From assembly GCA_033764335.1 (NCBI GenBank), contig JANRJC010000034.1:20899-84898 (forward strand): DNA of 64,000 nucleotides, in the 5' to 3' direction. This stretch comes from Bacteroidia bacterium. GTDB taxonomy: Bacteria > Bacteroidota > Bacteroidia > J057. The notes under the pieces were generated by a model. That model was not told the origin of the DNA, did no database searches, and saw nothing but the letters and a program-made list of their open reading frames with translations. Below, one piece after another: positions 12,801 through 51,532 of the stretch. The stretch's first letter is position 1. Each line of letters opens with the position of its first letter. The position numbers and the translations under genes were made by a program.

Positions 12801-12923
12801 GAGTTTTGCCACAAATTGTGTTTGGGCAATGGCCGTCATGCCGCTGAAGAAAAATATCAGCAGCAGAGCCGGGATTTGCTTTAAAACCCTGTTTTTGAGC
12901 AGGAGGAGTTGAGTTTTGTTCAT
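9870..12923 (-). CDS. Secreted protein with six tandem CHRD domains and a T9SS C-terminal sorting domain
   Basis: Signal peptide from the ATG at 12923 (MNKTQLLLLKNRVLKQIPALLLIFFFSGMTAIAQ). Six repeats of about 128 aa each contain G-SF..L......N..VAGGxH(F/I/L)H.G.AG.NGGI...L ... ADSNTFTL ... LY.NIHT....SGE(I/L)RGQ(L/V)LP, the CHRD signature. The C-terminal 80 aa or so end ...GSGVYFVKLEQTAVALPALKVLKK, typical of a Por/T9SS CTD. Confidence 0.85.
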   Translation of the reverse strand: MNKTQLLLLKNRVLKQIPALLLIFFFSGMTAIAQTQFVAKLSGNQSTFPILTTGKGEVTATLTGTELVVTGSFSGLVSDFNPNVAGGAHFHQGYAGRNGGIQIHLHTELDANLRGGTFPADSNTFTLTQAQIDALNSRQLYVNIHTAKYASGEIRGQLLPASDDYFSSRMFGSNSVPAVMSDGQGSLVLELTGNQLVVTGSFNNLTGDFNPAVAGGSHFHKGLAGENGGIQIELVPTPDANLKGGIFVADSNTFTLTQEQLDLLNGRGLYTNIHTTTVASGEIRGQVLPMPQIVFRTHLSGSNETTPLTVRGTGQTILEYKDSTLTVSGTFQNLGSPLNGAIAGGAHIHTNIAGRNGGISYHLHTELDTTGKFGRFEADSNSFAVSAAQLQNLMSRRMYANIHTAINPSGELRGQVLPQSQFVMNGFLSGINDVSPRISTGMGSLKAEILGNQMIVTGSFNNLQGDFNPAVAGGSHLHFGLAGSNGGIAIHLHPTLDANGKGGIFEADSNTITLSAGMRDTLKSRMLYANIHTTLYPPGEVRGQLLHEATSYFVAPLSGTSSTTPVKTNGTGAVNIEWTGTRLIATGSFNNLNTEFNHNVAGGAHIHVGYPGRNGSIQLPLEATVDTSGFSGQFLAVDNTLTARSGQIDSLFNRLFYVNIHTTANPSGEIRGTLLPFAATYFTAHAKADNELSVLSSPGHGAIKLSLTGSNLVVTGSFNALTLNYTASHLHIGANGTNGGVKIGLKPTVDPDQFGGVYQADSNRYVLDSAQIADIRSGNYYWNVHSAANPPGELRGQVLPETNFFPNDDAVITTPADGALIEIVGPEDSVFTADWSAASDPDNDLITYIWELALDSAFTQMITREKVRINQTFSTTFEVIDSLLALNGVNIGDTVTLYHRALSLDGNVSTPGMGASVQLIRSGLTGLDELIFDQFTLSFFPSPVQDVAHLVIESQIHTRATLRVMDMAGRTVSSREVVIGSGHNDLEIDFSQLGSGVYFVKLEQTAVALPALKVLKK

Positions 12924-13090
12924 AGGTAAGTAGTGTTTAAGTAAGTAGTAATCGCAAAATTTAATCATGCGAAACCCTGCCCTCGGTTTGACTTAGGCAG
13001 GGTGTTCGCTTCTGAATTGGAGAGCTACGATAAACATAACTCGCCTTCATCTGACAAAGAAAAGTTTGATGTTGTAACGGTAATTCCTTC

Positions 13091-37898: not shown

Positions 37899-38660
37899 TT
37901 AGGGTAGTTTACGCTGTAATTCTACGGCTTGGTTGTGGTAGTAATGTCCGGGGTCGCGTATGATCGAATCCAGAATTGTACGGGTCCTTTCCAGATCACT
38001 CGCTTTTAGCCGGGCAAGTGCCTTGTACCACATCGTCTGTTCGGGTACAAAAGAGGTTCGGTCAAGAACCTCCGCAGCTTCTGTCGGAGCGTGGAGTTCC
38101 AGCAAAGATATGGCGAAGTAAAAATCGGCTTCAGAGTATTTCGTTGTATCAATCAATAGCTGTTCTCTATATTTTTCAGTATATCGGAGGTAATCACCTT
38201 TGCGGTAAGCTGCATACATTTGATTGAGCTGTTCCCGGTCGCCTCCGGCTCCGAGGGTTTCAGGCGCGCGCGGAACCTCATAATAAGCCGAAAACAAAGC
38301 TTCTGGGGACAATCGTTTTGAGCGGAGTATGCTCACACTTATTCCGGCAACGGCAACGAGAATGAGTACAACTGCTGCAAGAGAAAACCATTTTCTTCGA
38401 GCAACCGATATTCGTTTTTTCTCTGAAGAAATCTCCTGGTAGATTTTGCGAAGATTTGTTTTTTGGTCTTCCTGCCCGGCCGTCCAGATTGCCCAATGAG
38501 TCAGTAGTTGTAAATGATATTGTTCATTAAAATCTTCATTTTCTCGGCAGACTCGCTCAAAATCCGCCGATTCCGTAGGAGTCATCCTACCCTGAATGTA
38601 TTTTTCTATCTGCCGGGTGGTTTCCGATTTTTCTTCTGATTCCATGTTTTCCGAAATCAT
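37899..38660 (-). CDS. Putative anti-sigma factor (single-pass membrane protein with TPR-like periplasmic domain)
   Basis: ATGA overlap with the upstream sigma factor gene. N-terminal cytoplasmic segment, one TM helix (WFSLAAVVLILVAVAGISVSIL), helical C-terminal domain. Confidence 0.55.
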   Translation of the reverse strand: MISENMESEEKSETTRQIEKYIQGRMTPTESADFERVCRENEDFNEQYHLQLLTHWAIWTAGQEDQKTNLRKIYQEISSEKKRISVARRKWFSLAAVVLILVAVAGISVSILRSKRLSPEALFSAYYEVPRAPETLGAGGDREQLNQMYAAYRKGDYLRYTEKYREQLLIDTTKYSEADFYFAISLLELHAPTEAAEVLDRTSFVPEQTMWYKALARLKASDLERTRTILDSIIRDPGHYYHNQAVELQRKLP

Positions 38661-39268
38661 ATCGTGCGATCTTTTCTTTTTTCCAGTAATTGTCGGAGTT
38701 TACTCATACAGCGATGTTTCTGACTTGCCAGACTGTTTGCATTTTTAAATCCCAACCTTTCCGTGAGTTCCTCCACTTCAAAACCATAATATTCAGACTC
38801 AACCAAAATCTGTCGGCATTTTCCACCGATTTTATCCAACAATAAGAGGATCTGATTCATGTCCTCACTTTCGATCAATCGCATAAGTGTGGTTTTTGCC
38901 TCTGTTTTCATATTAGGCAAAAGCTCTACCTGCTCCTTAATAGAAGAAGACGAATTTTTTCTGACACGATCAACACACCGGTTACAAAAAGATTTGTACA
39001 GGTATCCGGTCAGATTGCCTTCCGACTGAAATGCCTCATTATTAATCCGGTTACAAAGGCCAATTATCGCGTCTCCATACGCATCAACTGCCTCGTCTTC
39101 ACCAAGGTGATATTTTCGTTGTCCTTTCCTCACAAAATCCACGTGCCGATGGTAGAGATAGCTCGTAATACGCTGTCGCAACATGCCCCCCTGCTTGATT
39201 CCGGAAATGATTTCCGCATCAGAGTAATTTTGATCGGTTTCATTGCGCATAGTGAAGGCGGAAAACAA
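38657..39268 (-). CDS. Sigma-70 family (ECF-like) RNA polymerase sigma factor
   Basis: Region-2-like segment (EDEAVDAYGDAIIGLCNRI...GYLYKSFCNRCVDRVRK) and a region-4 HTH (CRQILVESEYYGFEVEELTERLGFKNANSLASQKHRCMSKLRQLL). Confidence 0.75.
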   Translation of the reverse strand: MFSAFTMRNETDQNYSDAEIISGIKQGGMLRQRITSYLYHRHVDFVRKGQRKYHLGEDEAVDAYGDAIIGLCNRINNEAFQSEGNLTGYLYKSFCNRCVDRVRKNSSSSIKEQVELLPNMKTEAKTTLMRLIESEDMNQILLLLDKIGGKCRQILVESEYYGFEVEELTERLGFKNANSLASQKHRCMSKLRQLLEKRKDRTI

Positions 39269-39456
39269 AAATATCGAAGAAACTAAAAAAAATGGGTGAT
39301 TGACAGAATAAATTGTCGTGTAATATATGAAAAGCGCCTCCTGTAGGCCAGTACAGGAGGCTTAATTGCTGACAATTTTTTCCTTTAGCAGAATTATACA
39401 AAGTCAACGATTGTAAAAATAGTAACTTAAGACGAAATACAAAATCTTTAAGCGGT

Positions 39457-40272
39457 ATGAAAAACCTCTGCTTCACACATGTCGTTACGCTTTACGTCGT
39501 TTTTCTTTGTTTCTCGCTAAACCTTCAGGCACAGCCGGGCAATAGGCCAAGTTTTGCCGTGTGGGACTGCGATGGGCAAGGCATGATGGCACCTCCCCCG
39601 AGTTGGACGGCAGTCGGCCAAACCATGGCCCTGCTCGATTCTGTGAGTTATGCATTCCCCACGGGAACCACGGCTACGGATGTTAAATTTGTTTTCCAGT
39701 TTGAAGACTCCTCCGGAAAAATTCTTGATGTTCTCTACCCTGTCGTCGGATCAAAAGCTTATGAGTTGACTTACAACTTATCGAGCCTTCCTGCGGATGT
39801 CACACTAAGTACCTCTCCGGCCGGTATGGATTTGAGTTTCCGACTGAATACCCAGACTGTACAACCCACATCCGGAAGTTTTATTAAAGTCTATTACGAA
39901 GTCTGGACCCAAGATGCTTCTGTCCCGGGGTCCGTATTTAAATTGCTGGACGGGCAGACAAAAACTTCTTGGTATAAACACAGCCTTTCGTGTAACAAGC
40001 TGATGGGAAAAGCCCGAGTCGGGCTGTTTGGCCGAACCGAGATTCAGGCAAACCCCAATCCATTCAACGATTACCTCTATATCGTTGCTGAAACCGAAAC
40101 ATCGGTTGTAAAAATTATGGATTCACAAGGCAGAACGATCCGCGTGCTGACTGTTCCGGCAGGAGATCGCCCCGTTCGTTTTCCTACCGAAGACATTCCC
40201 GCAGGTTTGTATTTTCTGCAAAAACAGACCTCCTACGGTATTGAAACTCTTCCCATGGTAAAAACTCATTGA
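39457..40272 (+). CDS. Secreted protein with T9SS C-terminal sorting domain
   Basis: Signal peptide (MKNLCFTHVVTLYVVFLCFSLNLQAQ). C-terminal NPNPFNDYLYIVAE...VKIMDSQGRTIRVL...IPAGLYFLQKQTSYGIETLPMVK is typical of a Por secretion CTD. Confidence 0.75.
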   Translation: MKNLCFTHVVTLYVVFLCFSLNLQAQPGNRPSFAVWDCDGQGMMAPPPSWTAVGQTMALLDSVSYAFPTGTTATDVKFVFQFEDSSGKILDVLYPVVGSKAYELTYNLSSLPADVTLSTSPAGMDLSFRLNTQTVQPTSGSFIKVYYEVWTQDASVPGSVFKLLDGQTKTSWYKHSLSCNKLMGKARVGLFGRTEIQANPNPFNDYLYIVAETETSVVKIMDSQGRTIRVLTVPAGDRPVRFPTEDIPAGLYFLQKQTSYGIETLPMVKTH

Positions 40273-40279
40273 CAAAGGT

Positions 40280-40313
40280 ATTCCGGGCCAAATTTTGAAT
40301 TTTGGCCCGGAAT
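40280..40313 (+). terminator. Strong hairpin terminator after the T9SS-cargo gene
   Basis: 13-bp stem attccgggccaaa / tttggcccggaat (40280-40292 / 40301-40313) with an 8-nt loop and a T-rich tail (ctgatttttt). It overlaps the alternative-start codon called at 40302, which favours the ATG at 40344 for the next gene. Confidence 0.8.
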
Positions 40314-40343
40314 CCTGATTTTTTGAGAAATTGCCAGAAGCCT

Positions 40344-43217
40344 ATGTATTACTCCCTGTCAACAATTCGGTTTTACCCGCTTTTTTTGTTTTTATATATG
40401 GGAATTCCTGCTGCCATGGCTCAGTCCTCCCAGCAAGCAGAAGATTTGGCCCATGCACAAAAATGGATGGACGAAGCCTATATATATTTTCAGCAAAATC
40501 CCGATACAGCCATCTATTACCTTTTAAAGGCATTGCCGCTATTTGAAAAACATTCCGAATGGGAATCTTATAGCAGTTGTATGAATGGCCTTGTTGCCTG
40601 TTACATGGGGAAAGAGGATTATCTGTTGGCGGAAAATTACGGGCAGGAAACCTTGCTTTTTATCCGGAAACACCTCGGTAAAAAGGTGGAAGTTTACGCC
40701 GATGCCCTCAATAACATGGGTACTTTATACCGGCTTCAGGGCAACCTCAACCTGGCGTTGGAGAACTATGAAGAAGCGCTGTCCATTACCGAAAATCAGG
40801 ACTCGCTCGCGCCGCTTGCCATATCCCGCCTATATTACAATATGGGTATTATTTACCGAAGAAGAGGGGAACCGGATCGCGCAATCAAATTTCATGAAAA
40901 GGCTCTGGCCAATGGCAGTCAGGAGTTACCATCAAACGATCCCCGGTTGATTCAGATTCTGTTTGCGATGGCAAGAGTATATACCGATCAAAAAGCCTGG
41001 AATGAAGCTCTCCATACCAACCTCCGCTGCCTGCAACTACTCGAAAGCGGTAATCCGGAGAAAACCTTCCGGGAAAAAATTAATGTGCATCATCAGCTTG
41101 CTCAGATTTATCTGGATCAGCAAAAAACGGATAGTGCTGCTTTTTATATTGACCAGGCAGACCGTATTCACGCCCGGTTTGGCCATTACCGGGAACAAGT
41201 AGGAGAGAATATTCGAGGAGAAATTGACCGAATCAAACACAATTACCCTCGGGCACTCGTTCATTATCGAAAAGCCTTACAAATGAGGTTGGAAGAATGG
41301 GGAAGCCTGGGTACTAACCCTGATATCGCAAACTCTTTTAAAACAATCGGAAGCCTGTTTGAAGAAACCGGTAAATACGACTCTGCCATTGTCAACTACT
41401 ACCAGGCGTTGCAGTTTTTATGTAAACCCTACAAAGGCAAACTTCCCGCAGCGGCTGACATACTACACCCCTTTGATGTCATCCCCGTGCTGGAATCTAT
41501 TGCCCGGACTTCTATGGCCGGCAACCCAAAATCGTATGCAAAAACTGCTATACAAGCCTGTTTGCTGGCAGATACAACCATTGCTCGCTTACGCCATACT
41601 TATCAGGAAGATAATGCCAAACTACAACTGGGCCAGAAATTCCGCAACACCTATGAAACCGGGATAAAACTGTTTTTTCAGCAATTTCAGGAAACCCATA
41701 ATACCGCCTTTCTCGAAAAAGCATTCCTTTTTTCCGAAAAATCGCGATCTATGGCTCTGACCGACGCACTCCAATCCACAGGTGCCAAACTCAGCGTCGG
41801 TATTCCCGATAGCATTAGCAGAAAAGAACAACAAATTCTCATCAATAGAACTTTTTATCAGGAAAAACTATTTCAGGAAACCCTCAAAGGAGATCAGGCA
41901 GATACCGTAAAAATCAAAAAATGGAAAGAGGCACTTTTTAATGCAGAAGAAGCTTACCACCGCTTTATCCGCTATCTGGAATCTGCATTTCCGGCTTATT
42001 TTCAGCTAAAATATGACCCCTCTTCTTTATCTATTGCAGAGGTGCAGAAACAGTTTCCGGACAAAAATACTACACTGTTGGAGTATTTTTGGGGAGAAAA
42101 AAATATTTACATTTTCCTCCTTACCACTCAGGGAATTAGCGGTCATTCGTTGTCCAAAACAGATGATATGACCCAGGCCGTTGACGGACTTCGCTATTTT
42201 CTACACAAGCCTGATTATTCGCCGGAGGTTTTACAGAAATTTGTCCGAAACAGCAACATTTTATATAAAGGGCTGATTTCGCCCATATTAGGAAATCGCG
42301 ATTCCGGAAAATTATTGATCATTCCCGATGGACCGCTCTCCTATATTCCCTTCGAAATTCTGCTTAGTAAAGCTATTCAGAGCGATTCCCTACTGAAGTC
42401 TTCGGATTTTCGTTCTATGCCCTATCTTATCCGGAAGTTTGAAATCGGCTACGGACTTTCTGCGCGATTATTTTTCCATGAATTACCCCCGTCAACCAAA
42501 CCCAGGAAACTGTTGGGAGCGTTTTCACCCATTTACCCCGATTCATTGTTACTCACCTACAGCAGAGAAAACGCAATAGACATTACGGCCACCCAAAAAG
42601 GGACCCTATTTCTCGACCACGACGCTACTAAATCAACATTTAAAACACAGGCTGGGCATTTTCGCATACTACATCTTGCTATGCACGGATTTTCAAACGA
42701 AAAAGAACCGCTGCTTGCACATTTGCTTTTTTCAGGTGAACCCGATAGCAGCACCCAACTCTACGCATTTGAGTTATACAATATGCTCATTCCCGCAGAT
42801 TTGGTCGTCTTAGCAGCCTGTGAAACCGGAGATGGAAAATTAATACCGGGCGAAGGCATCATGAGTCTGGCAAGAGCTTTCCGATATGCAGGTAGTGCCG
42901 CCATGGTAAGTAGCCTGTGGAAAGCCGACGGGCGTTCAACATCCGATATTTTACAATCATTTTACCACGATTTATTTGAGGGGCATTCCAAAACTGCGGC
43001 TCTACGTCAGGCCAGGCTGCGTTTCCTTGATCAATGCACACCCGACCTGGTGCACCCCTATTATTGGGCCAATCATATCCTTATTGGCAACCCGGCGCCG
43101 CTAAATACAGAAATACCGGGCTGGGTTTATATCGGAATCTTAGCTTTGATAAGTACCGTTCTTATATTTATTTTTTTTCTCAGAAAAAAAATGAAAAATC
43201 CGATGATTAGAGCATAA
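40344..43217 (+). CDS. TPR-repeat + CHAT-domain (caspase-like protease) protein with N-terminal signal and C-terminal TM anchor
   Basis: Signal-like N-terminus (MYYSLSTIRFYPLFLFLYMGIPAAMAQ) and multiple TPR units (ALNNMGTLYRLQGNLNLALENYEEAL...). The C-terminal CHAT domain has a His (FRILHLAMHGF) and Cys (DLVVLAACETGDG) dyad and HPYYWA. A terminal TM helix follows (WVYIGILALISTVLIFIFFL). Confidence 0.85.
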   Translation: MYYSLSTIRFYPLFLFLYMGIPAAMAQSSQQAEDLAHAQKWMDEAYIYFQQNPDTAIYYLLKALPLFEKHSEWESYSSCMNGLVACYMGKEDYLLAENYGQETLLFIRKHLGKKVEVYADALNNMGTLYRLQGNLNLALENYEEALSITENQDSLAPLAISRLYYNMGIIYRRRGEPDRAIKFHEKALANGSQELPSNDPRLIQILFAMARVYTDQKAWNEALHTNLRCLQLLESGNPEKTFREKINVHHQLAQIYLDQQKTDSAAFYIDQADRIHARFGHYREQVGENIRGEIDRIKHNYPRALVHYRKALQMRLEEWGSLGTNPDIANSFKTIGSLFEETGKYDSAIVNYYQALQFLCKPYKGKLPAAADILHPFDVIPVLESIARTSMAGNPKSYAKTAIQACLLADTTIARLRHTYQEDNAKLQLGQKFRNTYETGIKLFFQQFQETHNTAFLEKAFLFSEKSRSMALTDALQSTGAKLSVGIPDSISRKEQQILINRTFYQEKLFQETLKGDQADTVKIKKWKEALFNAEEAYHRFIRYLESAFPAYFQLKYDPSSLSIAEVQKQFPDKNTTLLEYFWGEKNIYIFLLTTQGISGHSLSKTDDMTQAVDGLRYFLHKPDYSPEVLQKFVRNSNILYKGLISPILGNRDSGKLLIIPDGPLSYIPFEILLSKAIQSDSLLKSSDFRSMPYLIRKFEIGYGLSARLFFHELPPSTKPRKLLGAFSPIYPDSLLLTYSRENAIDITATQKGTLFLDHDATKSTFKTQAGHFRILHLAMHGFSNEKEPLLAHLLFSGEPDSSTQLYAFELYNMLIPADLVVLAACETGDGKLIPGEGIMSLARAFRYAGSAAMVSSLWKADGRSTSDILQSFYHDLFEGHSKTAALRQARLRFLDQCTPDLVHPYYWANHILIGNPAPLNTEIPGWVYIGILALISTVLIFIFFLRKKMKNPMIRA

Positions 43218-43314
43218 ACCTTACGTGTTGTAATAATTGAGGACGCAGGCGGCGGCATGTCGTTTTATCTGCGAAATCACAAAACTTATTGTAACACACT
43301 CAAATTAATGGTTT

Positions 43315-43506
43315 ATGAAAAACAAAAAAGATCAATTGCTTGAGCAGTTTGATGCTTTCAAACTCAACGAAGTGAAAACTTCCAGCCGTATCAAAGGTGG
43401 ACAGAAGCCCGGCGACACTGCGTCCTATGTTGAGCACACTTATGATGGGATTTCTTTCGATCATATATTCCATACGGATGATAAGTTTGCTGCGGTGGGA
43501 AAATAA
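43315..43506 (+). CDS. RiPP precursor peptide with double-glycine leader (candidate ATP-grasp-modified peptide)
   Basis: 63 aa: MKNKKDQLLEQFDAFKLNEVKTSSRIKGG | QKPGDTASYVEHTYDGISFDHIFHTDDKFAAVGK. The helical leader ends in I-K-G-G. The core is rich in Asp/Glu/Thr/Ser/Lys/His. It sits immediately upstream of the maturase and exporter genes. Confidence 0.75.
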   Translation: MKNKKDQLLEQFDAFKLNEVKTSSRIKGGQKPGDTASYVEHTYDGISFDHIFHTDDKFAAVGK

Positions 43507-43538
43507 TTACCCCAAAATGATTTATTAATTCATCAGGT

Positions 43539-43579
43539 AAACACGCCAGTAATCGCCCTGATGGCTGGCGTGTTTTTTT
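43539..43579 (+). terminator. Intrinsic terminator/attenuator between the precursor and maturase genes
   Basis: 11-bp stem aaacacgccag / ctggcgtgttt (43539-43549 / 43565-43575) followed by a T-run to 43579. A second complementary pair, catcagg (43531-37) / cctgatg (43557-63), interleaves with it. Confidence 0.8.
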
Positions 43580-43591
43580 ACCCTATACCCA

Positions 43592-44587
43592 ATGGTCATC
43601 ATCAGTTCCCAAAACAGCGACATTTCTACCGGCGAAGTCATGGACTGGCTGAGAAGTATGGGTACGCCCGTTTACCGTATCAATGGTGAAGTTTTTGAGG
43701 CGGCTTTAGGTGAATTTGAGATGAACATCCGCCCGGAAATGCCTGCTTCCCTGACCCTCGAAGTAGAAGGAAAACCGGTTGCACTCGAAGACATTACCGC
43801 ATTCTGGTTTCGGCGTTCGGCGATAGACAATACCGCCGCTTCCCGGCTGGAATCATACTCTGCTTCGCCAGACTTAAAAAAACAAATGCTGGGGCATTTG
43901 GGCATGGAGTCATCCGCTTTACAAACCGCTTTTTTTTCCTGGCTTTCCGACAAGAAAACACTGGGCAATTATCGCGAAAAAGGCATGAACAAACTCGCTG
44001 TCCTGCAAATGGCTCGGGCCACAGGACTGGAAGTCCCCGCGACACTTGTCACCAATTCTAAAGAAAAACTCAGAACTTTTGCCCGGCAATACCCCGAAAT
44101 GATTACCAAATGCCTATCGGAAGTCAGATCATTTCAGTTGGAAGGGAAAATGATGGGCATGTACACCAGCACCCTTGACATCGCCGAAGTTGAAGATTTG
44201 CCAGATTTTTTCGCACCGTCGTTGTTTCAGCAAAATATTCAAAAAGAGTTTGAACTCAGGGTCTTTTACCTCGCGGGGGAAGTATTCTCCATGGCTATTT
44301 TCTCTCAGCTTGATCCTGTAACTGCCGTGGATTTCCGGCAGTACAACCACGAAAAAAACAACCGGGTAGTGCCCTACGCACTCCCGGACGATATCACAGA
44401 CAAGATTCGCAAACTAATGAGTGCTCTTTCGCTCAATACTGGTTCTGTGGACATAATCAAATCCACTGACCGGAAATATATTTTCCTTGAAGTCAATCCG
44501 GTCGGGCAATTTGGGATGGTATCAAAGCCCTGTAACTATTTTCTCGAAAAAAAGATCGCGCAGTTTTTAATGAGTAATACCGCATGA
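43592..44587 (+). CDS. ATP-grasp peptide maturase (RimK/microviridin-ligase-like; 'grasp-with-spasm' type)
   Basis: MVIISSQNSDISTGEVMDWL N-terminus. ATP-grasp core: NKLAVLQMARATGLEVPATLVTN, ELRVFYLAGEVFSMAIFSQ...VDFRQY, and GSVDIIKSTDRKYIFLEVNPVGQF (Mg/ATP E-x-N). Confidence 0.85.
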   Translation: MVIISSQNSDISTGEVMDWLRSMGTPVYRINGEVFEAALGEFEMNIRPEMPASLTLEVEGKPVALEDITAFWFRRSAIDNTAASRLESYSASPDLKKQMLGHLGMESSALQTAFFSWLSDKKTLGNYREKGMNKLAVLQMARATGLEVPATLVTNSKEKLRTFARQYPEMITKCLSEVRSFQLEGKMMGMYTSTLDIAEVEDLPDFFAPSLFQQNIQKEFELRVFYLAGEVFSMAIFSQLDPVTAVDFRQYNHEKNNRVVPYALPDDITDKIRKLMSALSLNTGSVDIIKSTDRKYIFLEVNPVGQFGMVSKPCNYFLEKKIAQFLMSNTA

Positions 44588-44764
44588 AACAGCCCGAAAT
44601 ACTACAGAAAAAAATAACCGGTGAATTGCCGGTTTTGTACAATCTTCTCAAAGAAATGAAAAGCGATCCTTCTCTGGTTCGTTTTGTATCCAGTACTCGC
44701 CATCAGACCCGCCTTTACGGAACCGGATTTTTTTATAAACCCCTATCCCGATTTGTATCTCAAC

Positions 44765-45799
44765 ATGGAACTACCTGTAATGACCCGGACGGACAATAAG
44801 TGTTTTATGCTTTTTGCCTCCTGCATTCCTGTAAAAGGATTTGCCAAAAGCATCATTGCCGATATTCAACGGGAACAATACCTGCCTGTGCCCAACCTTC
44901 TGGCAGATATCCTGATTGAAAATCGAGGGGTTTCTATAGGTGAAATCAAAAACCGGTATCAGCATCAGTATGACGAAGGGTTGGATAGCTATTTCCAGGA
45001 ACTGGCCCGCTCCGAATGGGGATTTTTTACAGAAGACCCTGACTGTTTCCCGCCATTATCGCTGGAATGGGATCATCCATCGGCGATTACTCATGCCATT
45101 CTGGATATAGATCAATCAAGGCATTATGAGTTAACACCCGTCATAAAAGAATTGGATGAACAGGGATGTAAAGCGTTACAAATCAGAGGATTTGGAGAGA
45201 TTGATACGCTCTCTATGGAAGAATGGCTGGAGGCAGCCGAAGATACCGGAATTTTTTCGCTGGAAATGATTCTTCCCTTATCTGCTTTCCGCTCTGTAAG
45301 TGAAGCAGAAAAAATGATACTGCGATACTGTCGGATTGTTTCGCTGACACTGTATGGGGCTGAAAATGAAGGATTTGCAAACACTACACACCCCGCTTCC
45401 GAAGACATTATTTACCTTACCCGACAAGCCGTCACCCCATATTCAAAAGAGCTAAGCGGTCCCGAGTTTTTTACGACCAATATTCATGCCTTTACTGAAG
45501 CACAACATTTCAACCTCGGACTAAATCGGAAAATAACGGTAGATATAAGGGGCAATATTCGGCATTTTCCGGGTCATAGCAGGGTATTTGGGCATATATC
45601 GTCAGATACATTGACCGCAGTCGTGGGCACAAAAGAATTTCAGGCTGTCTGGCAAACCCCTGTTGATAAGATTGAAAACTGTAAAGAATGTGAGTTTCGA
45701 TATATGTGTGCGGACAATAGCGAGGTTGTGCAAAAAGGTGAAAAAATTTACAGACTCACTACTTGCACTTATAATCCCCGAACAGGCGAGTGGCAATAA
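44765..45799 (+). CDS. SPASM-domain-type peptide maturase homologue without a canonical radical-SAM CxxxCxxC motif
   Basis: Near the N-terminus: NKCFMLFASCIPVKGFAKSIIADIQRE. C-terminal Cys cluster C-x2-C-x5-C-x18-C (NCKECEFRYMC...TTC), resembling the last part of a SPASM/twitch domain. No CxxxCxxC anywhere in the ORF. The start is uncertain (ATG 44765 or 44780; the ORF track begins at TTG 44684). Confidence 0.7.
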   Translation: MELPVMTRTDNKCFMLFASCIPVKGFAKSIIADIQREQYLPVPNLLADILIENRGVSIGEIKNRYQHQYDEGLDSYFQELARSEWGFFTEDPDCFPPLSLEWDHPSAITHAILDIDQSRHYELTPVIKELDEQGCKALQIRGFGEIDTLSMEEWLEAAEDTGIFSLEMILPLSAFRSVSEAEKMILRYCRIVSLTLYGAENEGFANTTHPASEDIIYLTRQAVTPYSKELSGPEFFTTNIHAFTEAQHFNLGLNRKITVDIRGNIRHFPGHSRVFGHISSDTLTAVVGTKEFQAVWQTPVDKIENCKECEFRYMCADNSEVVQKGEKIYRLTTCTYNPRTGEWQ

Positions 45800-45813
45800 A
45801 AATAGTAAACCCT

Positions 45814-48000
45814 ATGGCTGGTTTCCCTTATTACAAACAGTTGGATGTGATGGATTGCGGTCCTACTTGTATAAGGATGATCGCCAGGCATTACGGGCGC
45901 CATTATACACTAAAAACCCTCAGGGAAAAAAGTACGGTGGATCGGGAAGGCATTTCGCTACAAGGGATCGGTGAAATCGCCGAAGCCGTTGGTTTTCGGT
46001 CTTTGGGGGTAAAACTGGACTTTGATACTCTTGCAAAAGAAGCCCCCCTTCCAGCCGTTGCACACTGGAACCAGAACCATTTCGTCGTAGTCTATAAGAT
46101 AAAAAATGACAAGATTTACATAGCCGACCCCGCCTACGGTATGCTGGTCTATTCGAAGCAGGATTTTATTAAAAGTTGGGCATCGGACCGTCAAAATGGT
46201 GCCGAAAGCGGCATCTTGCTGCTTTTGGAACCCGGCCCCGATTTTTTGGAAAGAGAAGAAGAAAAACAGGATAAAAGCAGCTTCCGGTTTCTGTTCCGAT
46301 ACCTATCCCCATTCCGCAAATACCTCACACAGTTGTTTTTTGGCCTGATTCTCGGGAGTTTGTTTCAGTTGATATTTCCCTTTCTGACTCAGGCCGTAGT
46401 AGATTTTGGCGTAGGTACGCGAAATGTGGGATTTGTTTATTTGATCCTTATCGCTCAACTGGTGCTTTTTGCGAGCCAGATGGCGATGCAGTTTATTCAG
46501 GCATGGATACTTATTCACCTTAGTACACGCATAAATATTTCCATTCTTTCAGATTTCCTGATTAAGCTGATGAAACTGCCAGTGGGCTTTTTCGACAGTA
46601 AAAAAACTGGCGACCTGATGCAGCGAATTGGCGATCACCGGAGGATTGAACTATTTCTTACCGATGCGGTACTCAATAGCCTATTCTCACTATTTACCCT
46701 TGTGATTCTGGGGTTCGTTTTGGCTATTTACAGCCTGCCCGTATTTTTCATTTTCCTTACCGGAAGTACCTTATATGTAGGCTGGATTCTGCTTTTCCTG
46801 AAAAAAAGAGCACAACTGGATCACAAGAGTTTTGCCCAAATGGCAGCAGAACAGAGCAATATCATCCAGTTGATCACCGGAATGCAGGAAATCAAACTTA
46901 ACAATATCGAAAGATCAAGGCGGTGGGAATGGGAACGCATTCAGGCAAAGTTGTTTCGTATTAATCTCAAAAAACTGAGTCTCACCCAATACCAGCAAGG
47001 CGGTGCGCGGTTTTTTAACCAGATACAGAATATACTCATTATTTTCATTTCTGCCCAGGCTGTGATTGAAGGCGATATGACCATGGGCATGATGATGGCC
47101 ATCACCTATATCTCAGGGCAGTTGAACACCCCTATCGGACAGTTGATATCCTTTCTGCAACAGGCACAGGATGCCAAAATAAGCCTGGAACGTCTGGGGG
47201 AAATACATAACAGCCAGGACGAAGATGAAGAGGGAGGAATAGCAAATGATTTTTTCCCCTCTGACCGAAGTATCAGCATCCGCAACCTCGGTTTTCGTTA
47301 CGGGGGGACAGGAAGTGCAGAGGTATTGAGCAACCTCAGCCTGCATATTCCCAAAGGAAAAATTACGGCGATTGTCGGAGCGAGTGGCAGCGGAAAAACC
47401 ACCCTGATCAAACTCCTGCTTAAATTTTACCCGCCCCAGGAAGGACAGATTCAGATCGGTAATATTCGATTGGAAGATATACGCAGCCACAAATGGCGAA
47501 ACAGTTGTGGCGTAGTCATGCAAGACGGATTTATCTTTTCCGACAGCATCGCCAATAATATTGCCATGGAGGAAACCATAGATAAGTATCGCCTCCAGCA
47601 GGCTGTGGCTATTGCCAATATACGCCCGTTCATTGACGAATTACCACTGGGGTTTAATACCAAAATCGGGCAAGAAGGACTGGGACTGAGTGGGGGGCAG
47701 AAACAACGTATTCTGATCGCTCGTGCGGTTTACAAAAACCCCGACTATCTATTTTTTGACGAAGCCACCAGTGCCCTTGACGCCACCAACGAAAGACAGA
47801 TCATGGAAAATCTGGAAAATTTTTTTATAGGCAAAACCGTAATCATCGTTGCGCATCGCTTGAGCACTGTAAAAAATGCAGACCAGATCATCGTTTTGGA
47901 TAGGGGAAAAGTAGTAGAAACCGGGCATCATTCGACCTTGGTGGACCATCGTGGGCAATATTATTCACTGATCAAAAACCAGTTGGAACTGGGCAACTAA
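45814..48000 (+). CDS. Peptidase-C39-domain ABC transporter (double-glycine leader-cleaving bacteriocin/RiPP exporter)
   Basis: N-terminal C39 domain (QLDVMDCGPTCIRMIARHYG catalytic Cys; VAHWNQNHFVVVYKI His). Six-TM ABC membrane domain. NBD with Walker A GASGSGKTT, signature LSGGQKQR, Walker B LFFDEATSALD. Confidence 0.9.
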   Translation: MAGFPYYKQLDVMDCGPTCIRMIARHYGRHYTLKTLREKSTVDREGISLQGIGEIAEAVGFRSLGVKLDFDTLAKEAPLPAVAHWNQNHFVVVYKIKNDKIYIADPAYGMLVYSKQDFIKSWASDRQNGAESGILLLLEPGPDFLEREEEKQDKSSFRFLFRYLSPFRKYLTQLFFGLILGSLFQLIFPFLTQAVVDFGVGTRNVGFVYLILIAQLVLFASQMAMQFIQAWILIHLSTRINISILSDFLIKLMKLPVGFFDSKKTGDLMQRIGDHRRIELFLTDAVLNSLFSLFTLVILGFVLAIYSLPVFFIFLTGSTLYVGWILLFLKKRAQLDHKSFAQMAAEQSNIIQLITGMQEIKLNNIERSRRWEWERIQAKLFRINLKKLSLTQYQQGGARFFNQIQNILIIFISAQAVIEGDMTMGMMMAITYISGQLNTPIGQLISFLQQAQDAKISLERLGEIHNSQDEDEEGGIANDFFPSDRSISIRNLGFRYGGTGSAEVLSNLSLHIPKGKITAIVGASGSGKTTLIKLLLKFYPPQEGQIQIGNIRLEDIRSHKWRNSCGVVMQDGFIFSDSIANNIAMEETIDKYRLQQAVAIANIRPFIDELPLGFNTKIGQEGLGLSGGQKQRILIARAVYKNPDYLFFDEATSALDATNERQIMENLENFFIGKTVIIVAHRLSTVKNADQIIVLDRGKVVETGHHSTLVDHRGQYYSLIKNQLELGN

Positions 48001-49322
48001 TGACGGAGAACCTTTACCATAACGGACAGAAGCTTGAAGCACCTCAAATTGAGCTTTATAGTGAGGAAGTACAAGAAATAATGGGGACTATCCCTCCCTG
48101 GATAATTCGGCGAGGAATGGTAGTGATGTTAGTCCTGGTATTCGGATTGCTGGCGCTTTCAGCATTGGTTCATTATCCCGATATGATTTCTGCGAGGATC
48201 ACACTGACCACGACGTCTCCCCCCATAAGAATTTTCGCCCGTGCAAACGGGAAAATCACCCAATTGTTGGTTGAAAATCAGGCTATTGTGTCAGAAGGAA
48301 CTTATTTGGCGGTCATTGAAAACGCTGCGAATACCGCCTCCGTTTTTGCATTGGAAAAACTTTTAAACAAAGGCCTCGCTGATCATACAAAAATCACCGA
48401 GTGGCCTGCTTTTGACGATCTGGGAGAATTGCAAGGTGCGTATTCAGCTTTTATCCATGCGCGGGAAAATGGTCATTTTTATGCACAGAGCAGCACCTTT
48501 CGCGGCGCACAGCAGGTCTTATTGTCGGAGCAGGCAGAAGAATTACGGGCGATGAACCAAAACCTCGAAGAGCAACGCACTTTACTTCAGCGGGAAACTG
48601 CCATTGCAAAGGCGCAATTTAGAGCCTCGGAAACCCTATACGCCGAAGGCGCCATATCTAAAGTAGAACTCGAAACCAAAGAAGCTACCCTGCTTCAGAA
48701 AGAATTGGCGGCGAAACAGTTACATTCCTCTATTTTCCAAAACAATATACAGATCAGTGAATACCAAAAAAAAATACAGGAGATCCGGCAGGAAAATCTA
48801 CATTCCGGTTTTTCGTTTGATCTGAACATCAGCGATGCCTTTCAGCAGTTGAGTGCGGGGATTGAAAACTGGAAACAAAACTACCTGATTGTCGCCCCGC
48901 AGAAAGGACGTGTGGAATACCTCGATATCTGGGCCGAAAATCAGTATGTAAAAACAGGTGCAGAAGTAATCAGCATTGTACCCGATTCAGAGGAAGTTTT
49001 GGGCAAAGCAATTGTTTCTTCGCTCAACGCAGGTAAAATACAAACCGGACAAAAAGTAAATATTAAACTTGACAACTACGATTATCGGGAGTTTGGGATG
49101 CTTTCCGGTGAAATCAGGAACATTTCAAGCCTTGCAAAAGATGGACAATATATCCTCGATATTCAACTGAGTAACGGGCTTCTAACGACGTATAAAAAAA
49201 CCATCCGGTTTCAGTCAGAAATGTACGGCCAAGCGGAGGTCATTACCCAGGACATCAGTCTGCTGGACAGGATATTTTTCCAGTTTCGGGAGCTGCTGAC
49301 GCCAACAGTGGTTAATGGTTAA
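48000..49322 (+). CDS. HlyD-family membrane-fusion/secretion adaptor protein
   Basis: N-terminal TM helix (VVMLVLVFGLLALSALV), beta/lipoyl-like segments flanking a long coiled coil (LEEQRTLLQRETAIAKAQFRASETLY...), and a C-terminal beta-barrel domain. Its start overlaps the ABC stop (TAATG). Confidence 0.8.
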   Translation: MTENLYHNGQKLEAPQIELYSEEVQEIMGTIPPWIIRRGMVVMLVLVFGLLALSALVHYPDMISARITLTTTSPPIRIFARANGKITQLLVENQAIVSEGTYLAVIENAANTASVFALEKLLNKGLADHTKITEWPAFDDLGELQGAYSAFIHARENGHFYAQSSTFRGAQQVLLSEQAEELRAMNQNLEEQRTLLQRETAIAKAQFRASETLYAEGAISKVELETKEATLLQKELAAKQLHSSIFQNNIQISEYQKKIQEIRQENLHSGFSFDLNISDAFQQLSAGIENWKQNYLIVAPQKGRVEYLDIWAENQYVKTGAEVISIVPDSEEVLGKAIVSSLNAGKIQTGQKVNIKLDNYDYREFGMLSGEIRNISSLAKDGQYILDIQLSNGLLTTYKKTIRFQSEMYGQAEVITQDISLLDRIFFQFRELLTPTVVNG

Positions 49323-49418
49323 TTTGAGGTATAAACCCCCAACGAAACCCGCGAGTTCCTCTTTTAAAAAACCAGGATATCCTTTATTACAATTACAGAA
49401 AATTATATAGCCTGCCAA

Positions 49419-49751
49419 CTAGTCATCCAAAAATCCACTTACGGCCTGCTTTAGTTCAGATATTTTATAAGTGACGTAGTTCCACAAGTTTGCAGGACGA
49501 GCAGAATCATACTGATGTACCAGTGTATTCCGCCTGTTAATTGCCTGATCCTGACCAGGAAAATAAAACTGGAGTTTCAGTAATTGGTAGGCAGCTTCCC
49601 CTATTATTGCGAGTTCCCGCTCCACAGAAAGAATGGTTTTCAGATCATTACAAAATTCTTCTTCCGTATTGATCCCATCCAGATGAACCTTTTCGATGTC
49701 TTCGATACACTGAAGAATATCAAACAGATATTTTTTCTCTTTCCTGGTCAT
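49419..49751 (-). CDS. hepT: HepT-like (DUF86) toxin of a nucleotidyltransferase-type TA pair
   Basis: 110 aa with the R-x4-H-x-Y motif (RRNTLVHQYD). It overlaps the upstream antitoxin gene by 32 nt. Confidence 0.75.
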   Translation of the reverse strand: MTRKEKKYLFDILQCIEDIEKVHLDGINTEEEFCNDLKTILSVERELAIIGEAAYQLLKLQFYFPGQDQAINRRNTLVHQYDSARPANLWNYVTYKISELKQAVSGFLDD

Positions 49752-50052
49752 AGATTAATACCTTGGTTTCATCAACTTCAGCCTTGAAGTAGGGATTTCT
49801 AAGCCCTGGATACCACACCAAATCGACAGAGTGCCCCAGCAATTTCTCCGCCTCATCCTGAAAAGCAAAAAAATAGTCTATCGAATCTGCACCAGACAGA
49901 TTGGCGTGATTTAATTCATACAAAAAATCAATATCCGAATCGGGTCCAAATCTGGTAGTTAATGCAGAGCCAAACAGCCATAACTTGCTGAAGTGATACT
50001 TCAGGCAAAGATTTCTGATTGCGTCAATATATGGCTTTAATTCTGCGTTCAT
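49720..50052 (-). CDS. mntA: MntA-like minimal nucleotidyltransferase antitoxin
   Basis: G-S-x(n)-D-x-D nucleotidyltransferase motif (LWLFGSALTTRFGPDSDIDFLYE). 110 aa. Confidence 0.75.
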   Translation of the reverse strand: MNAELKPYIDAIRNLCLKYHFSKLWLFGSALTTRFGPDSDIDFLYELNHANLSGADSIDYFFAFQDEAEKLLGHSVDLVWYPGLRNPYFKAEVDETKVLIYDQEREKISV

Positions 50053-50326: not shown

Positions 50327-51532
50327 ATGTCAGCTATCCCTCAAAATCAACGAGTATGTATGAATAGAATGTTTTTCATTTGTAATGAGAGTTATTTTTC
50401 AGAAGAAATGGAAAATCGGAAGGAAGTTCAATCACCGCAGACTCTGACCCCCGAACAGGACAGCCCTGCATATCTTAAATACCGGATGGAAATCAAAGAC
50501 CAGATGATCTATGATTTGAATCTGGCACTCAACGAATCGAATATTGTAGCAAAAACGGATATCCGAGGAGTTATCACCTACGTCAACAAGCAGTTTTGCG
50601 AAGTCAGCGGCTATTTAGAAGAAGAATTGATCGGTAAAACCCACCGTATCATCAACTCCGGTTACCACAGCAAAGAATTCTTTAAACAATTCTGGCAAAC
50701 GATTAAGAAAGGAGAAATCTGGAAAGGAGAAATCCGAAACAGAAAAAAAAACGGAGAATTCTACTGGACCGATACTACAATTGTGCCCATTACGGATCCG
50801 CAAGGGGCGATAAAAGAATACATTGCCATCCGTAAGGAAATAACGGAAAGAAAACTTGTCGAAATTGCATTGCAAAAACTGAACGAAACCCTTCAGAAGA
50901 AAATCGAAGACATGAATAGGTTTTCGTTTATCACTTCCCATAATCTTCGTGCACCTGTCGCTAATATTATCGGGCTGATGCAAATGATGAAAGAAGGACG
51001 GGTGAATGCAGAAGAAATTCCCTTGTGGACAGAAAACGTGCTGAAAGTGGGAGAAGAGTTAAACAGCATTGTGAATGATCTCAATCAAACCCTGTCGGTA
51101 TATTCAGAAGCCGACAATCCCATGACCTTTCACCAGAAAAAAATAAGAAAACCCCAAGATACCCAGATGGTATTCATGATTGATGACGATGCCGTCACCA
51201 ATTTAATCCATACCCGGATTGCAGCAAAAGAAACCCCCGATGTAAAGGTACGGTCATTCACAGATGCACGGAGCGCCTTAAAGGAAATCTCGGAAAAAAA
51301 TGAAAAACCTGACCTTATCTTGGTGGACATCAATATGCCGAAAATGAACGGTTGGGAATTTTTGGCTGCCCTTGAAGAGCTGCCTCGGAACCAAACTGAC
51401 GGAATTGATATTGTCGTACTTTCTTCTTCGATCTTTTCGGAAGATAAGATAAAAGCCAAGTCTTTTACTCTAGTCAGGGATTTTTATACGAAACCATTGA
51501 CAAAAGAATCGTACAGGGAGATTTTTTTTTAG
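50327..51532 (+). CDS. PAS + HisKA-like dimerisation/phosphoacceptor + REC protein lacking a visible HATPase_c domain
   Basis: PAS (TDIRGVITYVNKQFCEVSGYLEEELIGKTHRIINSG...GEFYWTDTTIVPI). H-box-like FITSHNLRAPVANIIGL. C-terminal REC (VFMIDDDAVTN...DLILVDINMPKMNGWEFL...VVLSSS). No N/G1/G2 boxes. The start is uncertain (internal ATG at 50408, MENRKEV, is also possible). Confidence 0.7.
   Translation: MSAIPQNQRVCMNRMFFICNESYFSEEMENRKEVQSPQTLTPEQDSPAYLKYRMEIKDQMIYDLNLALNESNIVAKTDIRGVITYVNKQFCEVSGYLEEELIGKTHRIINSGYHSKEFFKQFWQTIKKGEIWKGEIRNRKKNGEFYWTDTTIVPITDPQGAIKEYIAIRKEITERKLVEIALQKLNETLQKKIEDMNRFSFITSHNLRAPVANIIGLMQMMKEGRVNAEEIPLWTENVLKVGEELNSIVNDLNQTLSVYSEADNPMTFHQKKIRKPQDTQMVFMIDDDAVTNLIHTRIAAKETPDVKVRSFTDARSALKEISEKNEKPDLILVDINMPKMNGWEFLAALEELPRNQTDGIDIVVLSSSIFSEDKIKAKSFTLVRDFYTKPLTKESYREIFF

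Follow-up and report, generated by a model that had tools for sequence, protein, structure and literature searches.

A six-gene grasp-with-spasm RiPP operon of a Bacteroidia bacterium, with a putative non-radical accessory complex for its graspetide ligase

Layout of the gws operon

We analysed a 64,000-nt stretch of DNA from a Bacteroidia bacterium (assembly GCA_033764335.1, contig JANRJC010000034.1, positions 20,899 to 84,898 of the forward strand; hereafter the window, in whose coordinates all positions are given). The list of open reading frames (ORFs) and the gene junctions, read directly, show a tight co-directional block on the plus strand at 43315-49322. It encodes a precursor peptide, an ATP-grasp ligase (GwsG), a small protein of the LPL family, a ‘SPASM domain peptide maturase’ (GwsS), a peptidase-containing ABC exporter and a HlyD-family adaptor (Table 1). 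We read this block as a ‘grasp-with-spasm’ (gws) operon for a ribosomally synthesised peptide with post-translational modifications (RiPP), in which GwsG would be a graspetide ligase assisted by a non-radical accessory complex of the LPL protein and GwsS, and we put the probability of this reading at roughly 0.55.

The initial annotation of this DNA, made from the sequence alone, had described a five-gene locus. All five of its ORFs are real, lie on one strand at the positions it gave and are tightly packed, but it overlooked a sixth gene, that of the 71-aa LPL-family protein. The precursor and ATP-grasp genes are separated by an 85-nt spacer that holds a hairpin, the ATG of the LPL gene overlaps the ATP-grasp stop codon (ATGA), the final 35 nt of the LPL gene overlap the GwsS gene, and a 14-nt gap leads on to the exporter gene, which is joined to the HlyD gene via a TAATG overlap. 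The GwsS gene starts at 44765 or possibly at 44780; the former position, given approximately in the initial annotation, matches the 344-aa protein annotated by NCBI (P0004) and the conservation of ‘KxFxLFAxC’ in homologues. A start at 44807, called on the Logan contigs and avoiding the LPL overlap, was rejected, as homologues keep ‘KxFxLFAxC’ upstream of that methionine, P0007 has no internal methionine and the NCBI annotation is of the 344-aa form.

Table 1. Coordinates of the gws operon, of the predicted parts of its products and of the genes directly upstream.
Feature	Position in window	Strand	Basis or remark
Precursor peptide gene, 63 aa	43315-43506	+	ORF, homologue context, dN/dS
Leader, residues 1-29, MKNKKDQLLEQFDAFKLNEVKTSSRIKGG	43315-43401	+	GG leader of precursor
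Core, residues 30-63, QKPGDTASYVEHTYDGISFDHIFHTDDKFAAVGK, no Cys	43402-43503	+	precursor translation
Hairpin, stem AACACGCCAG/CTGGCGTGTT, then T-run	43539-43580	+	fold energy, stem conservation
GwsG, ATP-grasp graspetide ligase, 331 aa	43592-44587	+	TIGR04192
LPL-family small protein, 71 aa, motifs ELPVLY and FFYKPLSR	44584-44799	+	HMM from 69 other loci
GwsS, ‘SPASM domain peptide maturase’, 344 aa	44765-45799	+	TIGR04193
GwsS RRE-like domain, residues ~13-89	44801-45031	+	predicted structure
GwsS short, unconserved beta/alpha barrel, residues ~110-219	45092-45421	+	predicted structure
GwsS SPASM-like domain, residues ~240-344	45482-45796	+	four-Cys site C306, C309, C315, C334
Peptidase-containing ABC exporter, 728 aa	45814-48000	+	Pfam Peptidase_C39, ABC_membrane, ABC_tran
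Exporter C39 double-glycine peptidase domain	~45823-46182	+	six-helix transmembrane and ATPase domains come after it
HlyD-family periplasmic adaptor, 440 aa	48000-49322	+	Pfam HlyD_3
253-aa ORF	37899-38660	-	no Pfam match; faint TPR matches on L005 and L006 orthologues only
ECF-type sigma factor	38657-39268	-	
Por_Secre_tail protein, T9SS-sorted, secreted	39457-40272	+	
TPR-CHAT (caspase-like) protein, 971 aa, membrane-anchored	40302-43217	+	

Precursor, ligase and export genes

Judged by its conservation, the 63-aa ORF, one of a rare family, is a real precursor under selection, because its relatives adjoin grasp, LPL and SPASM genes, its leader and core are conserved, and its ratio of nonsynonymous to synonymous substitution rates (dN/dS) is 0.068 against locus L006, indicating strong purifying selection. 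A word-indexed search of 5.8 billion proteins returned three relatives (P0001-P0003), and exhaustive phmmer searching of 1.84 billion representatives added two more true ones (P0029 and P0031). Two further phmmer matches, P0030 and P0032, were spurious, being large, repetitive proteins of low complexity. Only five clusters of the family occur among the 1.84 billion representatives, which makes it very rare. Each relative with readable context (L005, L006 and L088) lies immediately upstream of grasp, LPL and SPASM genes, and L088 has no other neighbours in common with the window. Precursor and ligase genes keep their synteny in five genomes, and the GG-leader precursor was found beside homologous maturases in four genomes other than this one, as expected from the initial annotation.

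Within the close relatives, the leader and the core through FHTDD are invariant while the C-terminal tail varies, and the KP(G)DTxx[YW]VEHTY stretch is retained even in P0031. The conserved core residues are K31, D34, T35, E40, T42, S47, D49, T54, D55 and D56. In several other loci whose GwsS has a reduced set of cysteines (see below), the leaders share the signature KKDxLLxxF...IxGG and the cores a G[IT]xxD element. The window holds only one such precursor ORF, and its GG leader, its core rich in Thr/Ser/Lys and Asp/Glu, and its place beside a ligase gene are those of a graspetide precursor.

Many gws precursors at other loci are Cys-rich. For example, Aquimarina gws loci (L016:4860-8372 and L008:8066-9958) carry five to eight tandem precursor genes downstream of the SPASM gene, with near-identical leaders (MKKKKxDSLSLKFxKQ...GVMGG) and hypervariable, Cys-rich cores. 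At two unrelated gws loci (L088:6591-6899 and L065:3922-4311) the gene immediately upstream of the precursors is that of a small helix-turn-helix-like protein (…RKATG…ELA…), which may be a dedicated regulator and is not found in the window.

The hairpin in the spacer downstream of the precursor gene has a GC-rich stem of 10-11 bp and a 15-nt loop, and is followed by a T-run. Its fold energy is -24.6 kcal/mol (z = -3.7), and in L005 and L006 the stem is conserved and the loop has diverged. A consensus terminator scanner missed it because its loop exceeds 8 nt. An attenuator between precursor and enzyme genes is a common RiPP operon design, and from its sequence and position the hairpin may be a terminator or attenuator that raises the ratio of precursor to enzyme transcript. 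A scan of 43000-49800 for sigma-70 promoters and terminators gave counts not above those in shuffled sequence, and the Bacteroidetes -7 motif TAnnTTTG was neither enriched in the window nor matched in the spacer before the precursor.

GwsG matches TIGR04192 at 300.9 bits (cutoff 230) over the full length of the model (1-318 of 318), and GwsS matches TIGR04193 at 218.6 bits (cutoff 175). With both proteins above curated cutoffs, the grasp-with-spasm assignment, which the initial annotation had put forward, stands, and NCBI annotates an identical protein (P0004) under the same name. The two genes are found together in 87 of 88 loci. The relatives of GwsG in the PDB are the microviridin- and chryseoviridin-type ligases AMdnB (7m4s, 2e-31), MdnC (5ig9, 7e-31), MdnB (5ig8) and CdnC (7mgv), with E-values from 2e-31 to 2e-22 across the solved members. 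Moreover, GwsG carries the ‘DFR’ motif (AVDFRQY) and, in a Pfam scan, a pre-ATP-grasp domain of the MvdD type. In L005 (8310-9297) the ATP-grasp gene is called as 231 aa only; DNA alignment puts a normal start right after the hairpin, and the short call has two possible causes, a pseudogene or a frameshift or sequencing error.

The hidden Markov model (HMM) comparison proposed for the export genes gave Pfam matches for both. The exporter combines Peptidase_C39 (PF03412, 8e-37), ABC_membrane (PF00664, 2e-29) and ABC_tran (PF00005, 1e-30), and its N-terminal domain aligns with that of PCAT1 (4ry2, 2e-21), with Q, DCG, HFVV and ADP conserved. The oxyanion Gln and the catalytic Cys, His and Asp thus line up with those of PCAT1, in agreement with a C39-ABC exporter of the peptidase-containing transporter (PCAT) type, and the protein scores below the equivalog and subfamily cutoffs of TIGR03796 and TIGR01193. 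The adaptor matches HlyD_3 (PF13437) with an E-value of 5e-14 and 53 bits against a cutoff of 22 and has precomputed HH_AprE and Beta-barrel_AprE matches; against TIGR01843 it scores 107 bits, under the cutoff of 208. The HlyD_3 match and the TAATG junction bear out the earlier description of a HlyD adaptor gene overlapping the exporter gene. No TolC-like outer-membrane gene was seen among ten large ORFs of the window that were scanned.

GwsS, the LPL protein and a proposed pathway

The initial annotation had expected a doubly modified peptide, which assumes an active SPASM/radical S-adenosylmethionine (SAM) enzyme. The GwsS family does not fit that assumption: the CxxxCxxC motif is present in none of 84 non-redundant members, and the Pfam model Radical_SAM (PF04055) matches none of 24 members at E <= 0.1. 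In the window copy, which falls outside the radical SAM superfamily by these signatures, the site after barrel strand beta-1 reads AILDIDQSRHYEL. Judged from these sequences, GwsS cannot carry out canonical SAM cleavage.

The cysteines that the family does keep were seen in a 24-member alignment (A2), in which five are invariant, one in an N-terminal ‘CIPVKG’ and four in a Cx2Cx5C...C arrangement near the C-terminus. The Pfam SPASM model (PF13186) matches 10 of the 24 members, the window copy not among them; the latter reaches 17.8 bits against TIGR04085 (cutoff 27) and has only four of the seven cysteines of a SPASM domain. Three extra cysteines at the positions expected for auxiliary cluster I are found in 68 of the 84 members and are missing from the window GwsS and 15 others; the 16 with the reduced pattern come from several genera. 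With a single four-Cys site, the window GwsS should, on sequence grounds, bind at most one [4Fe-4S] cluster. The fifth invariant cysteine, C20 (44822-44824), lies in the predicted beta-sheet of a RiPP recognition element (RRE), within the most conserved motif of the family (CIPVKG); it could have a structural or catalytic role or serve as a cluster ligand. A link between the loss of the extra cysteines and Cys-free precursors was considered and rejected, as the Aquimarina loci L008, L013 and L016 combine the reduced set with Cys-rich cores. At the locus described here the core has no cysteine, and therefore thioether formation is impossible.

The AlphaFold2 model of GwsS (predicted local distance difference test, pLDDT, 91.2; predicted template modelling score, pTM, 0.84) has as its best PDB folds SuiB and CteB, two radical SAM-SPASM maturases that contain an RRE, and after them anSMEcpe and SkfB. 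The barrel of the model is limited to 4-5 beta/alpha units and lacks conserved residues; across the family the invariant residues fall in the N-terminal and SPASM domains, and in the barrel a Leu alone is near-invariant. Modelled alone, the N-terminal 100 residues adopt a beta-beta-beta(-beta)-alpha-alpha-alpha fold (pLDDT 92.5), and the 14 top Foldseek matches of this model in the PDB are all RREs (probability 0.95-1.0, with weak E-values of 0.04-0.7). They include CteB, TbiB1 with its leader, TruD, ThcOx, lasso B1 with its leader and SuiB, and against leader-bound RREs the template modelling scores reach 0.59/0.66 at a root-mean-square deviation of 2.5 A. At the sequence level, no PqqD/RRE match to the N-terminus was found in Pfam at E <= 10, and searching the PDB with a GwsS profile at E <= 1 returned nothing but chance matches. 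We conclude that GwsS probably joins an RRE to a SPASM domain through a radical SAM barrel that has degenerated.

These same features could be read as those of an active second tailoring enzyme, which would give the exported peptide a further cross-link or other modification besides the ester or amide links, through Fe-S chemistry that either bypasses the canonical radical SAM cluster or employs SAM bound elsewhere. The fold is like that of the peptide-modifying radical SAM-SPASM proteins SuiB, CteB, anSMEcpe and SkfB, an RRE is typical of peptide-acting enzymes, the four-Cys site is invariant, the gene is strictly co-inherited with that of the ligase, and both the second set of cysteines in 68 of 84 members and the Cys-rich precursors of many other loci would suit such a role. 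The three-Cys pattern of the second set resembles the open-site auxiliary cluster I of CteB. At the same time, the missing CxxxCxxC motif and Radical_SAM match speak against a tailoring activity, as do the short barrel without conserved residues and the failure to find a solved or characterised homologue, and at this locus the loss of the second set together with a Cys-free core excludes thioether chemistry. We regard a tailoring role as unlikely, although it deserves more weight than decay of the locus or a substrate or leader role for LPL.

The loss of the auxiliary-cluster-I cysteines, the sub-threshold SPASM scores (17.8 versus 27 bits for TIGR04085, and no PF13186 match) and the 231-aa ATP-grasp call in L005 could also signal a decaying or silent locus, in which GwsS is losing its cofactor sites and no mature product is made. 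However, neither the window nor L006 has a broken ORF among the six, the precursor has a dN/dS of 0.068, and the reduced pattern occurs in 16 of 84 members from several genera and is common to relatives at 46-77% identity and to L088, which makes it old and stable. Decay thus seems very improbable.

The overlooked gene belongs to a family already described: in the ATP-grasp ‘branch 5’ an ‘LPL family’ gene always lies directly upstream of the SPASM gene, and a chaperone role was suggested for it by Makarova et al. (PMC8939145). The gene found here has this position and carries LPV and YKPLSR motifs. A 55-90-aa ORF occupies the identical position in ~78 of 83 non-redundant loci (from 87 related loci taken from genomes), with two shared motifs, LP[LVI]x[YF] and a C-terminal [FY][YH]KPIS[KR]. 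An HMM built from 69 of these ORFs, with the window and its close relatives left out, matches the window ORF with E = 4e-13; no Pfam or NCBIfam model matches it. Gene callers picked up the ORF on four Logan contigs as well as in the related NCBI metagenome-assembled genome (MAG) of L006, and its frame is the sole open one in all three close relatives (dN/dS 0.38 versus L006).

Natural fusions of LPL to either of its neighbours are the main support for a bridging role between GwsS and GwsG. In L009 (6692-7999; HMM E = 1e-18) GwsS carries LPL at its N-terminus as a fusion, and the same probably holds for L007/P0012 (L007:8001-9293), where the evidence is weaker (HMM E = 9e-4; BLASTP against the window ORF 2e-6), and perhaps for L076 (6704-8068), a still weaker candidate (HMM E = 5.6e-3). 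In L062 (5542-7005; E = 5e-9) it is fused to the C-terminus of GwsG. Most loci with fusions are MAGs or metagenomes, where a frameshift artefact is possible.

The fusion in L062 would also be compatible with LPL acting as a second substrate or as a leader in trans, whose LP[LVI]xY would activate the ligase like a PFFARFL helix or whose YKPIS[KR] would itself be modified. LPL resembles the Phh[x]h leader motif that is missing from branch-5 precursors (PMC8939145), and its conservation is strongest in two short motifs. On the other hand, it has no GG cleavage site and hence would not be processed by the C39 exporter, the GwsS fusion in L009 (and the weaker ones in L007/P0012 and L076) fits a subunit better, and its dN/dS of 0.38 reflects far weaker constraint than that on the true precursor. 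A substrate or leader role for LPL is, in our judgement, improbable.

We propose the following pathway. The 63-aa precursor would be made in excess, the downstream hairpin and T-run attenuating read-through, and its conserved leader (KKDxLLxxF...IKGG) would be recognised by the maturation machinery. GwsG, of the MdnB/MdnC type, would activate Asp/Glu side chains of the core KPGDTxxxVEHTYDGISFDxIFHTDD and link them to Thr/Ser as esters or to Lys as amides, with a loss of 18 Da per link; the candidate nucleophiles are T35, T42, S47, T54 or K31, and the candidate acids D34, E40, D49, D55 or D56. GwsS would most likely not be a radical SAM enzyme; it would serve as a leader-binding (RRE) iron-sulfur scaffold, which the 71-aa LPL protein would bridge to GwsG in an accessory complex, and the gws ligase would be a partner-dependent graspetide synthetase. 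The C39 domain would cut after Gly28-Gly29, and the exporter and HlyD adaptor would secrete the product. We infer the complex formation, the linked residues and the attenuation by the hairpin from the features described above; by analogy with other members of its class, the product may be a protease inhibitor.

Rosaritide synthesis offers a precedent for partner dependence: it needs the non-catalytic MirC, whose enzyme fold is degenerate and whose N-domain weakly resembles an RRE, and MirC and the ligase co-purify (PMC13097080). More tentatively, GwsS and LPL could constitute a new RiPP accessory module, a SAM-less Fe-S subunit on the ligase, or else perform an unknown non-radical Fe-S peptide modification; we rate this pair of possibilities together at somewhat short of even odds. 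In the accessory-module version, a GwsS derived from a radical SAM enzyme would have kept its RRE and one auxiliary cluster and become an obligatory subunit for substrate delivery or redox sensing, attached via the LPL adaptor. If either version is true, the widespread gws systems, with more than 570 species, would make graspetides by a mechanism unseen in characterised pathways, and the window would encode the product of a very rare, Cys-free precursor family.

Several points weigh against an operon with a non-radical accessory complex. The four-Cys Cx2Cx5C...C site is invariant in all GwsS and most members keep the second set, which suggests a redox or catalytic use, and the accessory model does not explain the role of the invariant cysteine in ‘CIPVKG’. 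The RRE assignment comes from predicted structures, with weak Foldseek E-values and no sequence-level PqqD match. GwsG has its own pre-ATP-grasp domain of the MvdD type, the leader binder in microviridin ligases, and an extra RRE is perhaps superfluous. The GwsG-LPL fusion of L062, seen in a MAG, may have arisen artificially by a frameshift, and a gene for an outer-membrane channel is not adjacent to the locus. Finally, our literature searches found no experimental characterisation of any gws system, and the partner role is inferred.

Neighbouring genes and comparison with known systems

A four-gene block (37899-43217; Table 1) lies directly upstream of the precursor gene. It ends with the gene of a TPR-CHAT protein that is co-directional with the precursor gene, preceded by those of a type IX secretion system (T9SS)-sorted Por_Secre_tail protein, an extracytoplasmic function (ECF)-type sigma factor and the 253-aa ORF. 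The block is syntenic in L005 and L006, but neither L088 nor any of 80 other gws loci has it. The TPR-CHAT, Por_Secre_tail and ECF sigma factor genes were considered as core gws parts and rejected, being syntenic in the three closest relatives only. Since protease inhibitors are known from this peptide class, a CHAT protease beside one of its members is suggestive.

Immediately downstream of the HlyD gene, on the minus strand, lie overlapping genes for a HepT-like RNase and an MNT/Pol-beta nucleotidyltransferase, of 110 aa each (49419-50052), which look like a toxin-antitoxin module of the HepT/MntA type; the pair is also present in L006. Further on, 50327-51532 (plus strand) encodes a PAS-HisKA-receiver protein in which HATPase_c was not detected, an unusual truncated hybrid sensor, and at the matching position L006 has a longer PAS/HATPase_c/receiver protein. 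Elsewhere in the window, at 9870-12968 (minus strand), is the gene of a protein of 1032 aa that has six CHRD domains and, at its C-terminus, a T9SS sorting domain.

The locus is an instance of an annotated, uncharacterised family and not a newly discovered system. Grasp-with-spasm corresponds to ‘branch 5’ of Makarova et al. 2022, with 190 loci (PMC8939145, where TIGR04192 and TIGR04193 are credited to Haft & Basu 2011), and to graspetide ‘group 14’ of Carter et al. 2026, every member of which has a SPASM protein (PMC13097080); gwsG and gwsS are also carried by conjugative elements of Porphyromonas gingivalis (bioRxiv 10.64898/2026.08.04.741601). We found at least 571 relatives among species-representative genomes. 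Most belong to Bacteroidota and Acidobacteriota, and a few loci are in MAGs labelled Gemmatimonadota or Myxococcaceae. The literature searches returned no published product for the system, as the initial annotation had supposed. The window locus resembles the described ones in its gene order (precursor, ATP-grasp, LPL, SPASM, C39-ABC, HlyD), its GG leader and its Bacteroidota host. It differs in that its GwsS belongs to the minority (16 of 84) without the second set of cysteines and in that its precursor family is very rare. A further difference may concern ‘cluster 23’, a secreted or lipoprotein accessory reported from almost all branch-5 loci (PMC8939145): neither a protein of this kind, for which no reference sequence was compared, nor an OmpR regulator was found near the window locus. 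An unannotated family of ~320 aa without a Pfam match, which may be ‘cluster 23’, lies beside gws genes in 17 of 84 loci (L022:3695-4651; also L010, L035, L047, L067 and L087) and has no homologue in the window.

With microviridins and chryseoviridins the locus shares a homologous ligase, in which a pre-ATP-grasp domain and the DFR motif recur, as well as an abundance of Thr/Ser/Lys and Asp/Glu in the core; C39-ABC export is shared with chryseoviridin and many Bacteroidota loci. However, GwsG scores far under the MvdC and MvdD cutoffs (175 versus 425 and 161 versus 475), the leader has no PFFARFL and the core no TxKxPSD, and microviridin clusters lack the LPL and SPASM partners that are obligatory in gws systems. 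The rosaritide pair MirB/MirC offers a parallel in one respect, namely a ligase strictly co-inherited with a protein of degenerate enzyme fold with an RRE-like N-domain (PMC13097080). MirC, in contrast, is SurA/PpiC-like, comes from Actinomycetota and has no Fe-S site, and partner dependence, demonstrated for MirC, is proposed by analogy for GwsS.

The predicted domain order of GwsS (RRE, barrel, SPASM) is that of SuiB, CteB and PqqE/PqqD, SuiB and CteB being its best structural matches, and the Cx2Cx5C...C motif of the auxiliary-cluster-II type is common to GwsS and the radical SAM-SPASM maturases. GwsS differs from these enzymes by the absence of CxxxCxxC, by a barrel ~100 residues shorter and unconserved, by the absence of auxiliary cluster I from the window copy and by having no PDB sequence homologue at E <= 1. 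TIGR04150, the ‘pseudo-rSAM protein’ family, is likewise SPASM-related, has no functional radical SAM motif and is found beside GG-leader peptides of Bacteroidota; it is a different family, which GwsS matches weakly (E = 0.003; 16.7 bits versus a cutoff of 250), and it has no ATP-grasp partner.

Published accounts call GwsS a radical SAM enzyme and suggest thioethers as products, which the sequences analysed here do not support. This family-wide evidence, as far as sequences can tell, argues against a radical SAM role and is the most useful new point of our analysis. Grasp-with-spasm clusters are among the commonest uncharacterised RiPP systems of Bacteroidota and Acidobacteriota, and the absence of a radical SAM cluster, the RRE-like domain and the LPL fusions lead to a three-protein model that covers the whole family and is specific enough to be tested. 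The version in the window, which has one precursor, no cysteine and only one cluster site, would make such a test simple.

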